A program made the position numbers and the translations under genes. Shown here piece after piece: positions 2,894-64,000 of a stretch of 64,000 nt of DNA (its first letter is position 1; each line of letters begins with the position of its first letter). The notes under the pieces were generated by a model. The model worked only from the letters and a program-made list of their open reading frames with translations, was not told the DNA's origin and made no database searches. Origin of the DNA: a virus. Its lineage: Duplodnaviria > Caudoviricetes. The stretch spans positions 1,745 through 65,744 of the IMG/VR virus record IMGVR_UViG_3300005046_000005. The stretch is one strand, 5' to 3'.

Positions 2894-3169
2894 TCAGACA
2901 GTAACAGCATCATTACCGTTAAACAACTCACGCAGCTCTTGCAGACGCTTCTCATTGGCCTGAGAAACCTCATCAAGCACTTGAGCTGTATGAACATGCA
3001 GGCGGAGCTTACTGCTACGGAGATTCGCCAAGAGTGAAGGCATCTCAGTCTGTTCTTGTTCAAGGACAGCAAGTTCAGCTTGCATTTGTTCTTTTGAAAC
3101 GGTTGTAACCAAGTCCTTCATATAGGCTTTAGGGCAGAAGGTTGGGGCTGGGTTGTTGTTTGAACTCAT
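2894..3169 (-). CDS. Hypothetical coiled-coil protein
   Basis: 91-aa ORF in the strand run, with RBS. Confidence 0.65.
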   Translation of the reverse strand: MSSNNNPAPTFCPKAYMKDLVTTVSKEQMQAELAVLEQEQTEMPSLLANLRSSKLRLHVHTAQVLDEVSQANEKRLQELRELFNGNDAVTV

Positions 3170-3356
3170 TGGGTGTTTCCTGTTGTTTCTTGTTGTTCCG
3201 TTTGTGTAGCGGTATTTAAACCGTTTTTTACTGCTCTGTAAAGTTATTTATCTGTTCAGTTGCATGTTTTTTAAACAATTGAATCTCAAGAAGCTGAGCT
3301 TACTGCACTCAAACAACTAAGCCCCGAACGAGTCGGGGCTATTTAAGACTAAATTA

Positions 3357-4250
3357 TTAGACAGATTGCTTTGACAGCATCTCTAGGTTATGGTAGATGT
3401 CCTTCACAAGCGCTAGACCTTCCAGAATTTCTTGAGCTATCTCCTGTGTATAAGCTTTGTTGCTGAACAGGTGAGCAAACATTGGTTCTTCACCAACCTT
3501 GAACTTTTTGAACTGAACCACTTCTTTTGTTTTACGTTCAGTCACACCGCGGTCATTGTCCATGACGTCACGGAAGTTCGCATAAGGCTTAGTGTCACCT
3601 TCATATTTCACTACACGAAGGTAGGCTTTCTCTGCTACCCCGTATAAACCTTTGTTGTAATCTAAGACGACCTGTGCAACTTCCTTCGCCGCAGACACTT
3701 CACGTTGCCATACAGCAGCAGCTTCCAGTGTATCGAATGCAGAACCGTCTTCTGCTACATATTCAATGCTTGAAGATTTCTCTGTGTACACGACAGCAGG
3801 ATCAATTACAGTCTTGTCTTCTTCAATTACAAGGCCAGTAAGTTTAGTGCCTGTGCGTTGTAAGGTGTCAAAACTGATCTCTTGGCGAGAGAACTTGCTG
3901 AGAAGCTTAATATTGTCAGGGCGGAAGCCTAGATCTGGGTTTTTCATCTCAATGATGAGGCCGCCTTTAGGTACATAGCCGTTCAGCATGAGAATAAGAG
4001 ATTTGTAGGCAATGTTTACGGCATTGAAGCCTTTACGAGCTGTAATATATACAGTGTCATTGCTTGGTTTAGGGTATTTAACATCACCCTTATCTATGAT
4101 GTAGCCTTTAGTTGAAACTTCCAAGCCATTTACACCGTCAATAGTGTAAACAAACTCGTTTCCGTTGAAGCCGTAGTTGACTTTAGCCCCTTTAAGAAGC
4201 ATGTCTTTGATGTTTTTGTTCTTAGCAACAGTGTTAGTAGAATTAGTCAT
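3357..4250 (-). CDS. Hypothetical protein, paralog of the 35197..36264 protein; possible degenerate HNH-like N-terminus
   Basis: Shared AQVVLDYN and KPYANF.DVM.N blocks; own promoter and terminator. Confidence 0.75.
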   Translation of the reverse strand: MTNSTNTVAKNKNIKDMLLKGAKVNYGFNGNEFVYTIDGVNGLEVSTKGYIIDKGDVKYPKPSNDTVYITARKGFNAVNIAYKSLILMLNGYVPKGGLIIEMKNPDLGFRPDNIKLLSKFSRQEISFDTLQRTGTKLTGLVIEEDKTVIDPAVVYTEKSSSIEYVAEDGSAFDTLEAAAVWQREVSAAKEVAQVVLDYNKGLYGVAEKAYLRVVKYEGDTKPYANFRDVMDNDRGVTERKTKEVVQFKKFKVGEEPMFAHLFSNKAYTQEIAQEILEGLALVKDIYHNLEMLSKQSV

Positions 4251-4559: not shown

Positions 4560-5549
4560 TTAGAGCCGCTGCAATAGAAAAGGTCGGATGAAGGTTTCAG
4601 CTGTCTTATAAAGGGCTTTATCAAAACCTTCATGATCTGGGATGATTATACCATCTCGCTTCATATCCACAAGCACATCTGCAACAAATTGCGTGGTTGC
4701 GCTGCCAATATGTTTAATCGTCAGCTCATCTGTTTTAGATTCCAAGGAAGCGAAGCGGTTATCTGTCATGTAATCCTGAGACTGAACCAAGATTTCCATT
4801 ACATCATCTGGCAAGACAACCTTTGGTTTAGGCATCTTGCTTTGCTTCTTCTCGGAGAACTTCAGTGTCTTCTTCTTAAAGTAAACACGGTCATTATCTT
4901 CATTTGGAAACCAACAAGGGATCACAGGTTCAATCACAATACCTTCAGCTTCGCGGTTGCGGAGTCCTGCAATCATGTCTGGATAGTCAGACAGCAGATT
5001 AGATTCAAACGTTTCATTCGCTTCTAAGGCTTTCTGCAAGTCCGTGTAAACACCAAGCAAAGGTACACAAGGGATGCCATGTGTGTCAAGATCAGCGCGC
5101 ATAGCTAGTTTATTAACTGGCACACCATCTAAGGCCATATCAAATGCAACCCAGTCCTGCTCTTGAGCATAGTCTACACCAGTCGCTACATTACCGCCAA
5201 ACAATTCACCCGTTACAACCAGCACATCGCAAGAGTCTGAAAGAGAACGGTACAGGTTTTCTAAGCGTGTACGGTATTTTGCTAAGACAGGGCGGAAGTT
5301 ATAGAACTTTTCCCCTTCTTCAATAAACCTGTTACGGCTTGCTGGTGTGATATTGATTGAAGAACAAAGGCCAATACCTTCCACTGCAACTTCAACTTCT
5401 TCGATCCAGAAGCTTAGGTTAGCTCCATGCACCTTTTCAGTAGCCTGCCACTGACGTTGATCGAAACCACATTCAATAGCAACCTCCAGCGGCTTTTGCT
5501 GGAAGGTGTTTACAAGAGAAGGGAAGCGGGTAAATTGCAAGGTTTTCAT
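4560..5549 (-). CDS. RNA ligase, Rnl2 family
   Basis: ATEKVHGANLSF (motif I), GELFGG, WVAFD, EGIVIEP and FKKK nucleotidyltransferase motifs. Confidence 0.9.
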   Translation of the reverse strand: MKTLQFTRFPSLVNTFQQKPLEVAIECGFDQRQWQATEKVHGANLSFWIEEVEVAVEGIGLCSSINITPASRNRFIEEGEKFYNFRPVLAKYRTRLENLYRSLSDSCDVLVVTGELFGGNVATGVDYAQEQDWVAFDMALDGVPVNKLAMRADLDTHGIPCVPLLGVYTDLQKALEANETFESNLLSDYPDMIAGLRNREAEGIVIEPVIPCWFPNEDNDRVYFKKKTLKFSEKKQSKMPKPKVVLPDDVMEILVQSQDYMTDNRFASLESKTDELTIKHIGSATTQFVADVLVDMKRDGIIIPDHEGFDKALYKTAETFIRPFLLQRL

Positions 5550-57156: not shown

Positions 57157-58575
57157 TTAATCTCTTGCGAATGGGTTTTCTTGCGTATATGACGCGATTG
57201 TAAAGAGAGGAATTGCCAAAGACACTCGCAGGTAGTTGAAGGCGTCAGAGGTTGCGTCCACCTGATCGTCCTTGTTCTTTCTGCTGCCGTCGAAGATCTC
57301 AAGTTCATTGAAATAAGCTTTGTTCCATTCACCTTCTACATAACGCACATGGCCTGCTTCTGAGATCGCTGCAAATGCTCCAAAGCGCGTCACCTTGTCA
57401 GTTTTAGGCTTGACTAAGCGTACCTTAAAGCCATGCTCCGCTAACTTAGCCTGTAGGCTTCTAGCGTAGCTTGAGGCGCTTGCTCCAACGTCTTCTGGAA
57501 TGATGATTGTGGTATTGAAACCATCTTCATACGCTTGTTCGATGATCTTCTGCTCTACACCCATAAAGCGATCTCGGAATCGAGTCACATGTTCAATGGT
57601 GTAGATTTTGTCCTTGTCTTTTGACATGAGAACGCCAGCTGTCCAGTCAGGGTTTTTGTATGTTTCTGAAGGAATACTGCTTGCCAAGTCCCAAGCTCTT
57701 GTTCTAGCTACAGCACGGCCATTTAGATAGACCACACCTTGCAGCCAGCTTTGCTTGAAATAGCCTGACTTTTCTTCTTTCGCTGTCCATGAACCATACA
57801 GAAGACGGTCACGTTCTACGCGGGATTGGTTCTTTAACTGTGTGATGTACGAAGGAGGAATGAATGGGTTGTCAAGGCAGGTGCTTCCGATAACCATCAT
57901 AGACATCACGCCGTTATCTTCTGCTGTACCGTGAACTGCTTCCGCTTCTTCTTTCGTTTCGTACCAGATCATGTTGCCAGCTTCATCTTTCGAGAAGTAG
58001 CGGATATTGCCGCGCTTCGCTGGATCTGGAATACCTGTCTCTGGATCTAACCAACCCCAAACCCAATCTTTTAAGAAGGACTCGTTGTGAGGGTTAGTCG
58101 CCATACAGACGGTGCATTTATGCTTTACCTTAGTGTTACGGTTACGACCAATAAGGTAGGTAATCATTTCTTCAGTAAATTCTGTTGCTTCGTCGAACCC
58201 GATGAAGTCTGCTTGCAAACCTTTAAACTTTTCCTTCGCAGCTTCGTTTTCATAGTGTGAGAACTTCAGTGAAGCTCCGTTAGAAAAGATCAGCTTTTTG
58301 TCCCGAAGGCGGACTTTTAATTTCTTGTCAATCTTTGAGTAAAGCGCAATAGCTTCTTCCCATAGACCACCTTGAGTCTCGATCTGAGTTAAGGTTCTAC
58401 GGAAGATAATTCCACGGGTTTCTGGGTCGTCAATAAACCGCAAGAAACGTAAAAGGATTGAGTATGATTTACTGCTCCCTGCCGAACCACTTGCGATAGT
58501 AATATCTGCATCTGAGTGAATAAACAACTCTTGTGGTACGCTGGCAGGGGCAATAATCTCAGGTGTTCTAGTCAT
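57157..58575 (-). CDS. terL: Terminase large subunit
   Basis: SGSAGSSKS, FDEATEF, NPH, AWDLA and DDQVDATS. Confidence 0.92.
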   Translation of the reverse strand: MTRTPEIIAPASVPQELFIHSDADITIASGSAGSSKSYSILLRFLRFIDDPETRGIIFRRTLTQIETQGGLWEEAIALYSKIDKKLKVRLRDKKLIFSNGASLKFSHYENEAAKEKFKGLQADFIGFDEATEFTEEMITYLIGRNRNTKVKHKCTVCMATNPHNESFLKDWVWGWLDPETGIPDPAKRGNIRYFSKDEAGNMIWYETKEEAEAVHGTAEDNGVMSMMVIGSTCLDNPFIPPSYITQLKNQSRVERDRLLYGSWTAKEEKSGYFKQSWLQGVVYLNGRAVARTRAWDLASSIPSETYKNPDWTAGVLMSKDKDKIYTIEHVTRFRDRFMGVEQKIIEQAYEDGFNTTIIIPEDVGASASSYARSLQAKLAEHGFKVRLVKPKTDKVTRFGAFAAISEAGHVRYVEGEWNKAYFNELEIFDGSRKNKDDQVDATSDAFNYLRVSLAIPLFTIASYTQENPFARD

Positions 58576-58938: not shown

Positions 58939-59279
58939 TAAGCAACCCCCTCATCCACGTACAGCTGGAGTTCCGCTAAAGCCGCTTTCCAGTTGGTCTG
59001 CGTATCACCATCAAGAACAAGGCGTTCGTAAAGGTCTGCCAGATATGGCTGCAATTCAGCTGGTACAATCTGCTGACGTAAATCTGGATCACTAAAGGCA
59101 GCATAGTCTTCTGGTTTCCAAAACGCATGACAACCGTAGAAGCTGTTGCCGTTGGCGTCTTTTAGTAAGACACTTAAGTTGTTATCCCCGCAGCCATACA
59201 AAGCTGCAATCTGATTGATTTTTGGCGTTGCAGCTTCAGAGGCAATGTTTACAACTGATAAATTGAATGAACTAGACAC
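58938..59279 (-). CDS. Hypothetical protein, probable partner of the upstream fibre-like protein
   Basis: Overlap-coupled ORF. Confidence 0.6.
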   Translation of the reverse strand: MSSSFNLSVVNIASEAATPKINQIAALYGCGDNNLSVLLKDANGNSFYGCHAFWKPEDYAAFSDPDLRQQIVPAELQPYLADLYERLVLDGDTQTNWKAALAELQLYVDEGVA

Positions 59280-62200
59280 TTAAGGTTACTCCCGTGTTTT
59301 TAGCTATAAGTTTTTCAAAGGCTAAGGTATCTGGATCACTGATCAGCTTACCTACACAGACCAAGTTATAAAGTTGACCTGAGAACGATAAACCTGTCCC
59401 TGCGCGTCTTCCGATGTACAGTGGATATTTGCCAAATGAACCTGTCCCTTGATCAAGGGTTGATGAAGATGCACTGGTTGCGTTTACACGCAGTCTAACG
59501 CTGTCGTTTGGGATATCATCTGCTGCACTCATAACAAAGCTTGTTGGTGACGCTAAGCTTGTGTTCGTTGCCGATGCGTTTGACGTCCCTCTGAACAGTG
59601 CTGCAACAGCTGGTGATGCTGCTACGTTTGGCGCTGCCAAGTAGAATGCACCTTTGGAAGTGTTAGCGTTTGTGCTAAGTTCTGCAACAATACCTACAGT
59701 GGCGTCAGATAGCTTTCGAATACCTGCAAAGAGGCTCAGCTTATCCGTTGCTGTCAGATCAATATCACCAGTCTGTAAGAAGTCGTCGATACCATCAAAC
59801 TTCAAATACCAGCAGTCAGGTTGACCAGCTTCAGTCACATCAAGAGCCGTTACCGTTTTCTGGTATGTAGTGGCTGTTAAGCCTACTTCCTGCTGAGGCT
59901 GCCAGATATGGATTGACGCCTGATCTGCTGTTGCAAATGTCCCGCGTAAACTAAGACACATAACTGCGGATGTTGAAGTCGAACTGGCGATCTTGATGGT
60001 GAACTTTTGCCATGTACCTGTGACGGTCAAGATACTTGATGTACCGCTGTCTGGTGTTGCACCGTTAAAGTCCATGCGGAACTGTTTAGTTGAACTGTCT
60101 GAAGTTCGAAGCCAAATAGTTGCTGTGTAACTTGAACCTACGCTTGTTGGGTTTGAAGCTGGCGGGATGAAGAACAGGTTGCTGCTGTCGCCGATAGCTG
60201 TTCCAGCACCTTTGTCAAAAGTAGCTAGTGTAGCTGTACTCGTACCATCTGGAGCTAAAACTCCGTAAGTAAGAACTGGCGTTGTCCCTGTACCTACAGC
60301 TGTCCCTTGCCATTTTGTAGGATCTTCAGAGTACGGTAGAAGGTTTCTTATACCGATGAAAGGGTGCCGGCCTAGTGTTGGGCGGGAAGCTGAAATAGCC
60401 TGACTTGCGTGGTTTCCTGCAAGCTCTTTAGCAGAAGCTGCTGTAATAGTTGCTGAACATACGAAACCAACACCTGAGTTGCGGAGATAGTAGTTACCTC
60501 TCCCTGAAGCGATTGTAGTATATGTCCCAGCTTGTGTAATTGGAAGGGCTTTCCCCGCCGCGCCATTTTCTAATGAAAGTGTCCCAGTTATTGCTGAAAT
60601 GGTGATCGAGAATAGGTAAAACTTCTTAGGATCTAGTGTACCTGACTCACAACTAAGAATACCATTACCATTAGCCGAGAATACAAGTGAGCTTCCATTT
60701 GAGGTCACTGTTCCATTACCAGTTTGCCCTGCTGTAATCCAGCCAGTCATACTTGACACTGGAGATAGCTTTTCAGAACTTAGAGCCAAACCTTTCGATT
60801 TATCTAAGAGCAACCCAACTGGCTGTCCAGCTGCTGCTGGAATTGTCCCTGCTGAATCTTGGTACATTGAAGATAAATCGCTTGGTTCAAATGAAAACCC
60901 ATTCGCGTCTGCAAAAGACTTGTAATTTAAACTGTCTAAGCTTGCTGCTCCAGCTCGTCGATCAAGGTTATCAACTAGCTCAACTTTTTCACGAACAGTC
61001 AAATCCCGATCAATAACAACCAGTCCTGCATGTGATGTATTGTCTACATAGTTTGCTGGGATTGTTTGGTTGAATGAAATCTTTGTCCCTAGGTTTGGAA
61101 TAGCTCGGAAAACTGTACAACCAGTCAGTTGACTTGGCAAGGTTGTCGTCAAGTTGTCATCAATACCGTCAAAGATGATCTTCCCGTTCTGGTAAAGAGG
61201 CCGCTGTGCAGATGTAGATTGGTAAGCGTGAACACCATTTAGCTTCTTAACACTTAGTTCAGAAACTGTCAGTGTTCCTGTTTGTGTCCCATCTGCTAAG
61301 ACGTTGATAACAGGTGCTGTTGCAATCTGGATGCCACTAAACACACCAGTAAGCGGATCATAGTTCAACTGGTTGACTCCGCCAGATGTTGCAAGGCGCA
61401 GGCCATTGACTTTACCGTTTCCTGTAATCTTCCCTTGTACAAGGTAATGCTCACCTGTCACAAGGCCAAGGTTTACGCTTAAGCGTGGATACCCGTTGAC
61501 AGTACCAGCGGTTGTAATTGTAACTGAACGTGTTGCTGCGTTATGCGTATAAACAGCTCCACCTGTACCCGCTTCAATAGTTGAAGGTTGGTTGGCAAAG
61601 AGTTCAGCACCAAGAGAAAGGCCACGGCTTTTATCAAGCATTAAACCTACAGGTTGACTTGAACCTGAAAGCGGAAATGCTCCCGATGAATCTTGATAAA
61701 GAGTAAGGGCTGGATATTCTAAAGGGATTGTTCGGAAAGGTTGATATTCTGAAACTGCGCTTGCCTTCTCAAGCTGGAAGCCTGAAACAACAATCGGTTT
61801 TACCGAGTTGCCTACATATTTCTTTACACCAAAATTAGTCGTTGCAGCTGCCCCAACAGGTACAATACCTATAGCACGGTAGAGACCATTTCCCATGGAA
61901 ATTAGGGAAGTATTTGCGCTTGTAATCACAGTTCCCTTAGCTACAAGGCAAAAGTCCGTTGTTGCAGAACTGCTTGAATCTCCAAGGACAGGGACTGTTC
62001 CATCAAGTGTCCGTACAAAACATGAGAACACATAGGGACTGTCAGCTGCAAAACTAATTTCTTTGTAAACAACAGTTCCAACAGCATTGTTGTCTATACG
62101 AATACCCGTACCTTCATTTAATCCCGCGAAGGTAGTGGCAGAGATTGTTCCAAATCTTGTGTTTACATCTGAAATGCCATTGCGGAACTCGGTTTCAGTT

Positions 62201-62391
62201 AGAAGATTTCTGCGCAAGGCCACTTTAGCTACAGTAGAGTCTAAAGGATCGTATGCAAAGCCTTTTTCATTATTTGCATACAGTTTTTTAAGCAGCTGGC
62301 TAAGGCTGCGGTCTTTTGATCCTAAGACATTTGCACTGAGAGTGCTTAGGTTAAAACCACCGATATTGACAACTTTAGATGATTGCAGCAT
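59272..62391 (-). CDS. 1039-aa repeat-containing virion fibre/spike-like protein with LamG/CBM-like domains
   Basis: Two copies of YQDS.G...QPVGL.LDKS.GL and FDGIDD.L; Ser/Thr/Gly-rich. Confidence 0.65.
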   Translation of the reverse strand: MLQSSKVVNIGGFNLSTLSANVLGSKDRSLSQLLKKLYANNEKGFAYDPLDSTVAKVALRRNLLTETEFRNGISDVNTRFGTISATTFAGLNEGTGIRIDNNAVGTVVYKEISFAADSPYVFSCFVRTLDGTVPVLGDSSSSATTDFCLVAKGTVITSANTSLISMGNGLYRAIGIVPVGAAATTNFGVKKYVGNSVKPIVVSGFQLEKASAVSEYQPFRTIPLEYPALTLYQDSSGAFPLSGSSQPVGLMLDKSRGLSLGAELFANQPSTIEAGTGGAVYTHNAATRSVTITTAGTVNGYPRLSVNLGLVTGEHYLVQGKITGNGKVNGLRLATSGGVNQLNYDPLTGVFSGIQIATAPVINVLADGTQTGTLTVSELSVKKLNGVHAYQSTSAQRPLYQNGKIIFDGIDDNLTTTLPSQLTGCTVFRAIPNLGTKISFNQTIPANYVDNTSHAGLVVIDRDLTVREKVELVDNLDRRAGAASLDSLNYKSFADANGFSFEPSDLSSMYQDSAGTIPAAAGQPVGLLLDKSKGLALSSEKLSPVSSMTGWITAGQTGNGTVTSNGSSLVFSANGNGILSCESGTLDPKKFYLFSITISAITGTLSLENGAAGKALPITQAGTYTTIASGRGNYYLRNSGVGFVCSATITAASAKELAGNHASQAISASRPTLGRHPFIGIRNLLPYSEDPTKWQGTAVGTGTTPVLTYGVLAPDGTSTATLATFDKGAGTAIGDSSNLFFIPPASNPTSVGSSYTATIWLRTSDSSTKQFRMDFNGATPDSGTSSILTVTGTWQKFTIKIASSTSTSAVMCLSLRGTFATADQASIHIWQPQQEVGLTATTYQKTVTALDVTEAGQPDCWYLKFDGIDDFLQTGDIDLTATDKLSLFAGIRKLSDATVGIVAELSTNANTSKGAFYLAAPNVAASPAVAALFRGTSNASATNTSLASPTSFVMSAADDIPNDSVRLRVNATSASSSTLDQGTGSFGKYPLYIGRRAGTGLSFSGQLYNLVCVGKLISDPDTLAFEKLIAKNTGVTLSV

Positions 62392-62687: not shown

Positions 62688-62915
62688 TTAGTAAGGTGGA
62701 TTTCTGGAAGGGGTTACATTTCCGAAGTAAAGTCGCTGGGCTACAAATTCCTCTAACTGATAGGTTTTCATATCGTAGTCGTCAGTATTGCGCAGATCTT
62801 TGTTCACTTCGTTTCTGCAGGTGTTGCAGAAAGTTTCTTCGATCTTCGTGCCATCGGGGAGAGTTCTGTATCCTGTAGTTCTAACAAGGATTCTGTTGCA
62901 GCAAGCACATCTCAT
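62688..62915 (-). CDS. Small Zn-ribbon protein
   Basis: CACC...CNTC. Confidence 0.6.
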   Translation of the reverse strand: MRCACCNRILVRTTGYRTLPDGTKIEETFCNTCRNEVNKDLRNTDDYDMKTYQLEEFVAQRLYFGNVTPSRNPPY

Positions 62916-62929
62916 AAAATACCTGAATG

Positions 62930-63019
62930 TGGTACTTCCGACAGGGATCGAACCTGAATCAAGCCGTTATCTACGGTAAGCGGTTATAAATCGCCTTGCT
63001 TTCCATAAGCTACGGAAGT
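62930..63019 (-). tRNA. tRNA-Ile(UAU)-like with a long variable arm and encoded CCA
   Basis: Acceptor stem ACTTCCG/CGGAAGT, then A-CCA; D stem GCT/AGC; anticodon loop TT-TAT-AA; variable stem CCGT/ACGG; T loop GGTTCGATCCC. Confidence 0.85.
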
Positions 63020-63062
63020 AGGTTAAGTTGAATGAAGCTTGCATTGCACAAGCAGATTATAA

Positions 63063-63182
63063 TGTTGACTAGGTGCGTACAAATAGCTTCCTATGACTCG
63101 TGTCGATTTAGGCCGAAGGCTCTATTACAGGCTTGCGGGTCACTACCGCTGATTACCATGTTGTCGCATGGATTTAGTCAAC
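63063..63182 (-). ncRNA. Candidate ~125-nt structured RNA closed by an 8-bp stem
   Basis: GTTGACTA/TAGTCAAC terminal stem; internal stems CCATG/CATGG, GCGG/CCGC and CCTGT/ATAGG. Confidence 0.5.
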
Positions 63183-63289
63183 AAAGAGGGGAAATTTTAG
63201 ATAAAAAAAATTTACTAAGTCTAAGAACGTTATTGGAATGTTTTCTGAATCCCCGTTGCTAGACTTAGTAAATTTAAATTTTAAAGGGC

Positions 63290-64000
63290 TGAGATTAAAC
63301 CCTTTATTAACCGTCTTGAGAGGATTATTGCTTCCCTCCTTATCCACAAGCTTTTAACTTGTCTCGGTCAGTGCTAGTCAGTTGAGCTAACCACCCTATA
63401 ACATTAAAACTACTCTCCTACTAATCACTCTGCGCTAGTATGCCTACCAAACACAAAACTTTCATAGAAATATCTAAAACCTTTCGAGCCTTAGATGCAG
63501 CTGACAACCAGCTACTATGTAAGCACTTTTCATTTTAATGTGCGAAACACTTTTGAAAAAGATTACCTTTAATCGAAAGTTAGTTTAATTGGTTATACCT
63601 AGTGGTTTCGCTGTAGTTAACAAACCTTTTGAGTCCATCAATCCTACACTAGATATTGTGCTTTATCATGCACGTTGTTTTAAGCTTGCACCGCAGATGT
63701 TGGTACATCTAGCATCTAGGCTCAGCACCACCTGATTACCTAACTTGCATCTTTTAACAATACAGTAAAGCGTTCCTGTTTGACGACAAGCTTCGCTCTA
63801 AAGCTACAAGTTCTCTTATTGTCTCTCGACTCAAAAGCATTACGCCTTCAACCTCTACCGCACCGATTAGCTCTGGCTTCAGTTGATACCTTGTTTGCAT
63901 ACTCAATAGCGCAGGCATTGCACCTGAACTACGCCCCAGATACCATCTGGAACTTTATCCTGTTTTGCAGTTTATCTAAGACTATATGCAGCCTATTAAA
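63290..64000 (-). ncRNA. GOLLD-like large structured RNA candidate (5' end probably outside the window)
   Basis: No ORF >=60 aa; long-range helices 63828-63837/63626-63635 and 63712-63718/63492-63498; several hairpins; adjacent to a tRNA; short motifs recalled from GOLLD occur in order. Confidence 0.6.

Follow-up and report, generated by a model that had tools for sequence, protein, structure and literature searches.

A very probable compact-type GOLLD RNA gene upstream of a tRNA gene in an uncultured tailed phage

GOLLD RNAs are among the largest non-coding RNAs of bacteria and phages. Their 3′ domain (P13–P27) is the universally conserved half of the molecule, and the Rfam model RF02032 spans that half only. 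To our knowledge, no GOLLD has a known function, despite the atomic structures of their cages. Cryo-EM has shown that 14 copies of the env-38 GOLLD (833 nt) assemble, without protein, into a cage of D7 symmetry (PDB 9MEE; Kretsch et al. 2025, PMC12286853). In this cage, the 5′ domains constitute the caps and the 3′ domains the rings, with the variable linker in the interior, the subunits being held together by ten classes of inter-subunit bridges (PMC12286853). The GOLLD of Streptococcus agalactiae (700 nt) is a dodecamer (PDB 9L0R) that is devoid of P9, P11a-c and P21b and shows a single L21-L21 kissing contact (PMC12990946). ROOL RNAs are also large phage RNAs found near tRNAs and forming RNA-only cages, which are octameric (PMC12286853), but their sequence and fold are unrelated to those of GOLLD.

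The DNA analyzed here (the window) is a stretch of 64,000 nt corresponding to positions 1745–65744 of an IMG/VR virus record of 65,744 nt, listed as linear and ~82% complete. Position 64000 of the window is the end of the contig, and every gene between 57 and 64 kb is encoded on the minus strand. A preliminary description of the right end of this window, made from the letters alone, had proposed a GOLLD-like giant RNA in a stretch of more than 700 nt devoid of any ORF of at least 60 aa. Our analysis shows that this stretch is a genuine, essentially full-length GOLLD. The segment from 63283 to ~63997 (minus strand, ~712 nt) is very probably the gene for a compact-type GOLLD RNA, carried by an uncultured tailed phage on the same strand as a tRNA gene and a terminase gene and upstream of both. 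It is a diverged member of a known family, from a lineage already on record, and not a new kind of RNA. The main features of the locus are as follows:

57157–58575, minus strand: terminase large subunit (Terminase_6N and 6C), 4.7 kb downstream of GOLLD
62930–63019, minus strand: tRNA of 90 nt (anticodon UAU; tRNA-Ile according to ARAGORN) with an encoded CCA and a long variable arm
63063–63182, minus strand: 120-nt element with a closed multi-stem fold (z −2.2, 6 of 200 shuffles as stable)
63203–63275, minus strand: long A+U-rich hairpin (67 nt) followed by eight U's, separated from the 3′ end of GOLLD by ~10 nt
63286–63656, minus strand: GOLLD 3′ domain (P13–P27), RF02032 match of 201.5 bits, E 2.2e-55, model positions 1–416 of 416
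63657–64000, minus strand: GOLLD 5′ domain (344 nt), alignable throughout with that of seven other GOLLD copies

A cmscan of the whole window against all Rfam families at gathering thresholds retrieved GOLLD (RF02032) as its sole match. The proposal that the Rfam GOLLD model would recognize this region is therefore borne out: the full model is matched on the minus strand with 201.5 bits, compared to a curated gathering cut-off of 150 bits, only eight non-standard pairs are flagged, and chance is excluded since the covariance-model E-value is 2e-55. The ROOL model had been suggested as a second one to search with. A more sensitive scan of 62850–64000 (E up to 1) retrieved GOLLD and tRNA only, and hence neither ROOL nor any other family at E ≤ 1. 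The sequence motifs that had been proposed to follow the GOLLD order are found on the plus strand as reverse complements only, and therefore fit an RNA transcribed from the minus strand. Their order is a family feature in part only: GGUGGUUAGC and GUUUGUU do belong to conserved helices of the 3′ domain, whereas the segment of the 5′ domain that contains AAGUUAGGUAAU is variable.

A blastn search of 62900–64000 against GenBank phages returned eight records, all from Acinetobacter phages of 97–106 kb and with 67–72% identity: AM24, Bestia, Herod, YMC13/03/R2096 (two records), P577, Ab15 and vB_AciJM_313, the match with the latter extending to the last bases of the window. In the three Acinetobacter phage loci that were examined, a full GOLLD match (207–219 bits) is found on the tRNA strand, in a gap of 730–985 nt within the tRNA array. 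The IMG/VR relatives score 209–262 bits and include L005, L006 (= L009), L007 (the YMC13/03/R2096 record) and L030, which is a more canonical and distant copy (261.5 bits). The scan of IMG/VR with the 15-mer GGTGCTTACATAGTA yielded 33 loci; Rfam, applied to 18 IMG/VR loci including 15 from this set, found GOLLD only in L005, L006, L009 and L030, the rest of the set (18 loci) being covered by nhmmer only. Another scan with GACAATAAGARAACTTG yielded 18 loci and no new GOLLD by nhmmer, and L008, retrieved by a 16-mer scan, carries no GOLLD. The three matches of a gapped pattern (L054–L056) were attributed to chance. The published GOLLD alignment lists the 3′ domains of P577, YMC13/03/R2096, Bestia, Herod, AM24 and many other phages of Proteobacteria (PMC12286853, supplementary file 3), and a full-text search for GOLLD and Acinetobacter found no paper discussing the Acinetobacter copies.

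Since the RNA runs from right to left, its 5′ half was expected at 63657–64000, possibly clipped by the contig end. The full-length alignment, in which the window copy is 68–72% identical to the copies of this clade and 55% identical to L030, starts from the first base. The start of L030 matches that of env-38 base for base (Supplementary Table 4 of PMC12286853, compared by eye), and alignment to nucleotide 1 of env-38 via L030 places the 5′ end of the RNA at ~63996. Upstream of this end, the relatives carry one small UUCG-capped hairpin and then the preceding tRNA; the counterpart of this hairpin would fall past the contig end. Judged from the alignment, the window copy is essentially complete (~712 nt), with at most ~25 nt of uncertain membership absent.

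The claim of more than 700 nt without an ORF of at least 60 aa also stands: no closed ORF of this length occurs in 63290–64000, the longest reaching 57, 54 and 48 aa, and a 73-aa frame with a TTG start (63780–63998, plus strand) is open at the contig end. In GenBank records, the GOLLD locus is unannotated or, in Ab15 (PP763259.1), overlain by two small 'hypothetical protein' CDSs, FECEXHZU_CDS0071 and CDS0072 (positions 3122–3492 of the extracted locus, L003). One could therefore read the whole region as encoding small proteins, as the Ab15 record does under its match and as frames of 48–73 aa would allow. However, neither the length nor the position of these frames is conserved in the relatives, indels are frequent, the substitutions are patterned as paired RNA helices and the covariance model is matched in full, so that the probability of such coding is practically negligible. 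The two CDSs of Ab15 probably do not correspond to real genes. No tRNA feature is listed for this region of the record either, although ARAGORN finds 14 tRNAs within the 6.5-kb locus.

Covariation, which had been put forward as a check, is strong in both domains. For the 5′ domain, it was evaluated on an alignment of seven sequences from five diverged lineages, with a consensus computed by RNAalifold. This consensus comprises 69 pairs, 35 of which are still paired through changes on both sides. Standard pairs occupy 92.7% of the cells compared to 78.4% in shuffles, the 35 double-change pairs compare to 16.9 in shuffles, and none of 500 shuffles reached either value. When the partners are slid by 1–3 columns, pairing falls to 31–42% and double changes to 4–11. 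The helices of the 3′ domain show one to nine double-change pairs each (seven sequences) and, over the whole RNA, most consensus helices show several double changes. Two sets of long-range pairs suggested by RNAalifold (63991–63994/63370–63374 and 63601–63611/63542–63551) conflict with the Rfam structure and were not adopted.

All the helices and hairpins of the preliminary description exist in the sequence, some of them displaced by one base, but they do not have the same value. The pairing of CTAGTG (63599) with CACTAG (63647) is real and closes the first 3′-domain hairpin as its outer stem, paired at five or six of its six positions in all sequences; the hairpins at 63936–63950 and 63499–63513 are likewise conserved and covarying. 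The terminal hairpin, reported at 63284–63306, is conserved with covariation but spans 63283–63305. That at 63912–63926 caps a conserved hairpin, which in the window is 10 nt longer through an extension specific to this copy. By contrast, the hairpin at 63695–63710, although present in the window, is weak (zero to four of five positions paired in relatives), and TAGATGC (63492)/GCATCTA (63712), complementary at 7/7 positions in the window, retains 1–3/7 in relatives and conflicts with P19/P20, a local hairpin in the Rfam structure.

The most prominent of these helices, a long-range pairing of 10 bp between 63626–63635 and 63828–63837, is perfect in the window but is not conserved: 8/10 positions are paired in the AM24 type, 7/10 in L006, 6/10 in L030 and 5/10 in vB_AciJM_313 and L005. 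It could in principle be a real helix that locks L14 and makes the RNA alternate between the cage and a closed monomeric form; the A-run of bridge B6 would then be masked, and 7–8 of the 10 helix positions are paired in three relatives, compared to all 10 in the window. Nevertheless, no compensatory change was found among the relatives compared, U-to-C changes on one strand are unmatched on the other, pairing drops to half in vB_AciJM_313 and L005, and both strands are engaged in local helices with five and nine double changes. The 5′ strand of the complement combines the 3′ side of a covarying, GUAAU-capped hairpin (63831–63851, five double changes) with the beginning of the following stem, whereas the 3′ strand comprises the stem P14 and its loop L14. 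Such a switch is thus highly improbable. The 10-bp complement is best read, from the aligned copies, as a coincidence of motifs: the relatives match in part because GAGUC and UCAAAAG are both conserved.

The window copy shares with env-38 the two-domain layout and, in the same order, the 5′ start, GGAUAAAGU, UUGAGUA..GCAA..AUAUCA, CAAUAAGA and GGUGGUGC, as well as the L14 A-run, the J13/15-L20 pair, the GGCA loop of L21b and the L27 loop. It differs from env-38 by being ~120 nt shorter, with a linker of ~40 nt and without P21a (B8) and the GAAA-capped P11a. This comparison was made by eye on OCR text missing ~18 nt, so that residue numbers are approximate, and bridges were mapped by motif and not by residue number, B2, B3 and B5 being left unmapped. 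The elements that were located, all on the minus strand, are:

~63963–63967, minus strand: A-rich loop CAAAA of bridge B1, kept
63626–63632, minus strand: L14 loop UCAAAAG (B6), loop of the first hairpin of the model, whose P14 stem covaries in relatives
63557–63598, minus strand: variable linker J13/15 of ~40 nt, an unpaired stretch of low confidence in the model
63555–63556, minus strand: UC dinucleotide of J13/15, 5′ of the conserved AAAAGUG, predicted partner of the GA of L20 (B7, inter-subunit kissing)
63481–63486, minus strand: L20 loop CGAAAG with GA at 63484–63485, a hairpin of the Rfam model that covaries with J13/15
63441–63444, minus strand: GGCA loop of the single P21 hairpin (B9), matching L21b of env-38
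63351–63357, minus strand: loop UUAAAAG (B10) of a hairpin of the Rfam model, with a covarying stem and an A-run kept in all relatives
63283–63305, minus strand: terminal hairpin P27 with the L27 loop UUUAAUCUCAG, model positions 401–416

Four motifs indicative of membership, i.e., the L14 A-run, the J13/15-L20 pairing, the self-complementary loop of L21 and the L27 loop, are all present in the window copy. In env-38, the A-run of L14 acts as donor in B6, an A-minor bridge between subunits (PMC12286853, supplement), the loop equivalent to 63351–63357 donates A763/A764 to bridge B10, and L27 ties together several elements of the 3′ domain (PMC12286853). The L27 loop is invariant in the clade, and the P27 stem is paired at five or six of six positions in the seven close relatives, with a change from GC to AU or CG. 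The linker, which is directed into the interior of the solved cage (PMC12286853), contains no embedded tRNA detectable by ARAGORN at 63557–63598.

Among the inter-subunit contacts, B7 joins the dinucleotide preceding AAAAGUG with positions 2–3 of the L20 hexaloop. The pairs 63556:63484 and 63555:63485 of the window are UA and CG. This contact reads UC/GA in the window and in the AM24 type, GU/AC in vB_AciJM_313 and L005, and GC/GC in L030; in env-38, GA pairs with UC through G546-C618 and A547-U617 (PMC12286853). On the aligned sequences, B7 is thus a case of clean covariation for a contact seen as intermolecular in a solved structure. A second contact, similar to B4, could join UGAU (63665–63668) and GUCA (63781–63784) of the 5′ domain. 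This contact becomes UGAU/AUCA in vB_AciJM_313; the AM24 type has UGGU/GUCA and L030 has GGAU/AUCC. Support is weaker than for B7, as the changes within the clade are only wobble-compatible and the L030 sequence was read by eye.

The GGCA loop is identical in the eight sequences including L030, and the stem of its hairpin is identical in the seven close relatives. In env-38, L21b forms the self-kissing bridge B9 between half-shells, in which G675-C676 pair and A677 is stacked (PMC12286853). P21a, the hairpin of bridge B8, is absent from the whole clade, which shows a gap at model positions ~233–248 (16 nt compared to L030), so that the canonical env-38-type pair of P21a and P21b is not found in the window copy. 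This loss is not disqualifying, since the solved GOLLD of S. agalactiae also has a single P21 hairpin. Similarly, the GAAA-capped hairpin of L030, which corresponds to P11a of env-38, falls in a ~30-nt gap of the window copy. As described (PMC12990946), S. agalactiae GOLLD resembles the window copy by its similar size, its single P21 hairpin and the loss of P11a; it differs by its Gram-positive host and perhaps by which P21 hairpin is retained, the window copy keeping the GGCA of the L21b type.

The absence of P11a and P21a, together with a score below that of L030 (201 compared to 262 bits), might suggest that the window copy is a decaying, non-functional remnant. However, the same reduced form is found in five diverged lineages (66–74% identity) with compensatory changes throughout, and only eight pairs of the model are non-standard. 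Furthermore, PMC12990946 describes a solved GOLLD with similar losses that nevertheless forms a cage. Decay is therefore very unlikely, and a complete RNA of compact type is the reading retained here.

The GOLLDs of Acinetobacter phages share this compact architecture over their whole length (no P21a and no P11a), their location on the tRNA strand and their position upstream of the terminase gene. They differ by their immediate surroundings, as they are wedged between tRNAs with gaps of ~10–35 nt, whereas in the window a terminator-like hairpin and the 120-nt element come before the tRNA. The order GOLLD, tRNA(s), a few genes and terminase is also found in AM24 and vB_AciJM_313. Despite this, the terminase of the window is only 34–38% identical to those of AM24, vB_AciJM_313, L005 and L009, and its closest relatives (45–48% identity) come from Pakpunavirus phages of Limnohabitans and Pseudomonas. 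RF02032 had no match in Limnohabitans phage DC31 and Pseudomonas phage EM, a blank that is weak evidence although the same search found the window copy. Considering GOLLD identities of 68–72% against terminase identities of 34–38%, and the lack of match in two Pakpunavirus phages, GOLLD similarity therefore does not track terminase similarity. To judge from these comparisons, the discordance would fit either a very strong constraint combined with patchy loss or an exchange of tRNA/GOLLD modules. We tentatively consider it possible that the compact GOLLDs of this phage and of the AM24 and vB_AciJM_313 types form a distinct subfamily from phages of Gram-negative hosts (no P11a, a single P21 with an invariant GGCA and a 5′ domain ~50 nt shorter), that they assemble into a cage other than a 14-mer, probably of 12 copies, and that a mobile tRNA/GOLLD module passes between distant phages.

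The adjacent tRNA of the preliminary description is real, downstream and on the same strand, although it lies 267 nt from the GOLLD 3′ end. GOLLD is thus found in a phage setting next to a same-strand tRNA gene, and a single tRNA is visible beside it because the contig ends. In Rfam, this tRNA was detected by the sensitive scan only (38.4 bits at 62933–63019). An A-C mismatch closes its anticodon loop, and a TATAAT hexamer is located ~40 nt upstream (63057–63062). Between GOLLD and the tRNA, the hairpin at 63203–63275 with its U8 is probably an intrinsic terminator: the fold of 63185–63300 (minus strand) reaches −24.3 kcal/mol (z −5.2) and none of 200 shuffles is as stable. A simple terminator scan missed this hairpin, the loop limit of the scan being 8 nt. 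In relatives, this terminator-like hairpin is absent and a tRNA lies within ~10 nt, so that tRNA processing would define the ends of GOLLD. Since the GOLLD of the window is followed by the hairpin and the 120-nt element, and not by an abutting tRNA, its processing may be different.

It had also been suggested that GOLLD works within a joint RNA-centred system comprising the 120-nt element, the long-arm tRNA(UAU), an RNA at the left edge and RNA-repair enzymes. GOLLD, the 120-nt element and the tRNA(UAU) are indeed co-oriented within 1.1 kb, and GOLLDs are generally tied to tRNA arrays (PMC12286853). However, the fold of the 120-nt element is only modestly more stable than those of shuffles and this element has no Rfam match, the first 2400 nt at the left end of the contig gave neither an Rfam match nor a tRNA (Rfam, ARAGORN), and the terminator-like hairpin parts GOLLD from the other two RNAs. 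Furthermore, 63020–63285 is unlike the loci surrounding related GOLLD copies: in a blastn search against all the fetched ones, it matched only its own contig (L001). Such a joint system is thus unlikely. The interval between tRNA and terminase contains a 1039-aa ORF (59272–62391, minus strand) with a weak, sub-threshold C-terminal match to Laminin_G_3 (concanavalin-like); from this match, its product may be a receptor-binding or tail fibre protein.

The compact GOLLD would be transcribed from a promoter located past the contig end, together with the tRNA region, and its transcript would end at the hairpin and U8 of 63203–63275. By analogy with the solved cages, the RNA would fold into two domains, and its copies would self-assemble without protein into a closed dihedral cage with the short linker inside. 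The predicted contacts are the L14 A-minor interaction, the J13/15-L20 kissing pair, the loop-loop pairing of UGAU (63665–63668) with GUCA (63781–63784), and the self-kissing of GGCA that would join the two halves. Because P11a and one P21 hairpin are missing, as in the 700-nt GOLLD of S. agalactiae, 12 copies would be expected more than 14. This leads to the prediction of a 12-mer cage whose equator is held by a single GGCA kissing loop. As to its role, our best guess, which is speculative, would be a container or scaffold acting with the tRNA/translation module of the phage during infection and holding tRNAs, ribosomes or a host factor. The copy adds a diverged member to the compact subfamily, whose close relatives are found in Acinetobacter phages that are lytic and can be cultivated (AM24, Bestia, Herod and Ab15), and the alignment provides compensatory-change support for the 5′ domain of this subfamily and for the inter-subunit J13/15-L20 contact.

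The related loci carry several other RNA features. L030 encodes a tmRNA (5080–5453, Rfam 82.7 bits, full model) ~350 nt downstream of GOLLD, on the same strand and beside the tRNA array. L005, a 97-kb relative of vB_AciJM_313, carries a group I intron (1020–1236, Rfam 85.1 bits, full model). In its terminase match (G001:C1:71942-73315), an open span of 813 aa contains two TAA stops in frame, so that this gene may be interrupted. In vB_AciJM_313 (PX050566.1), ARAGORN finds a tRNA with the amber-reading anticodon CUA at 4716–4789 of the extracted locus (L002; Rfam tRNA 60.7 bits), and this tRNA-CUA, a tRNA-Ser and a tRNA-Met, all unannotated, lie inside or just before a feature recorded as 'putative replication origin'.
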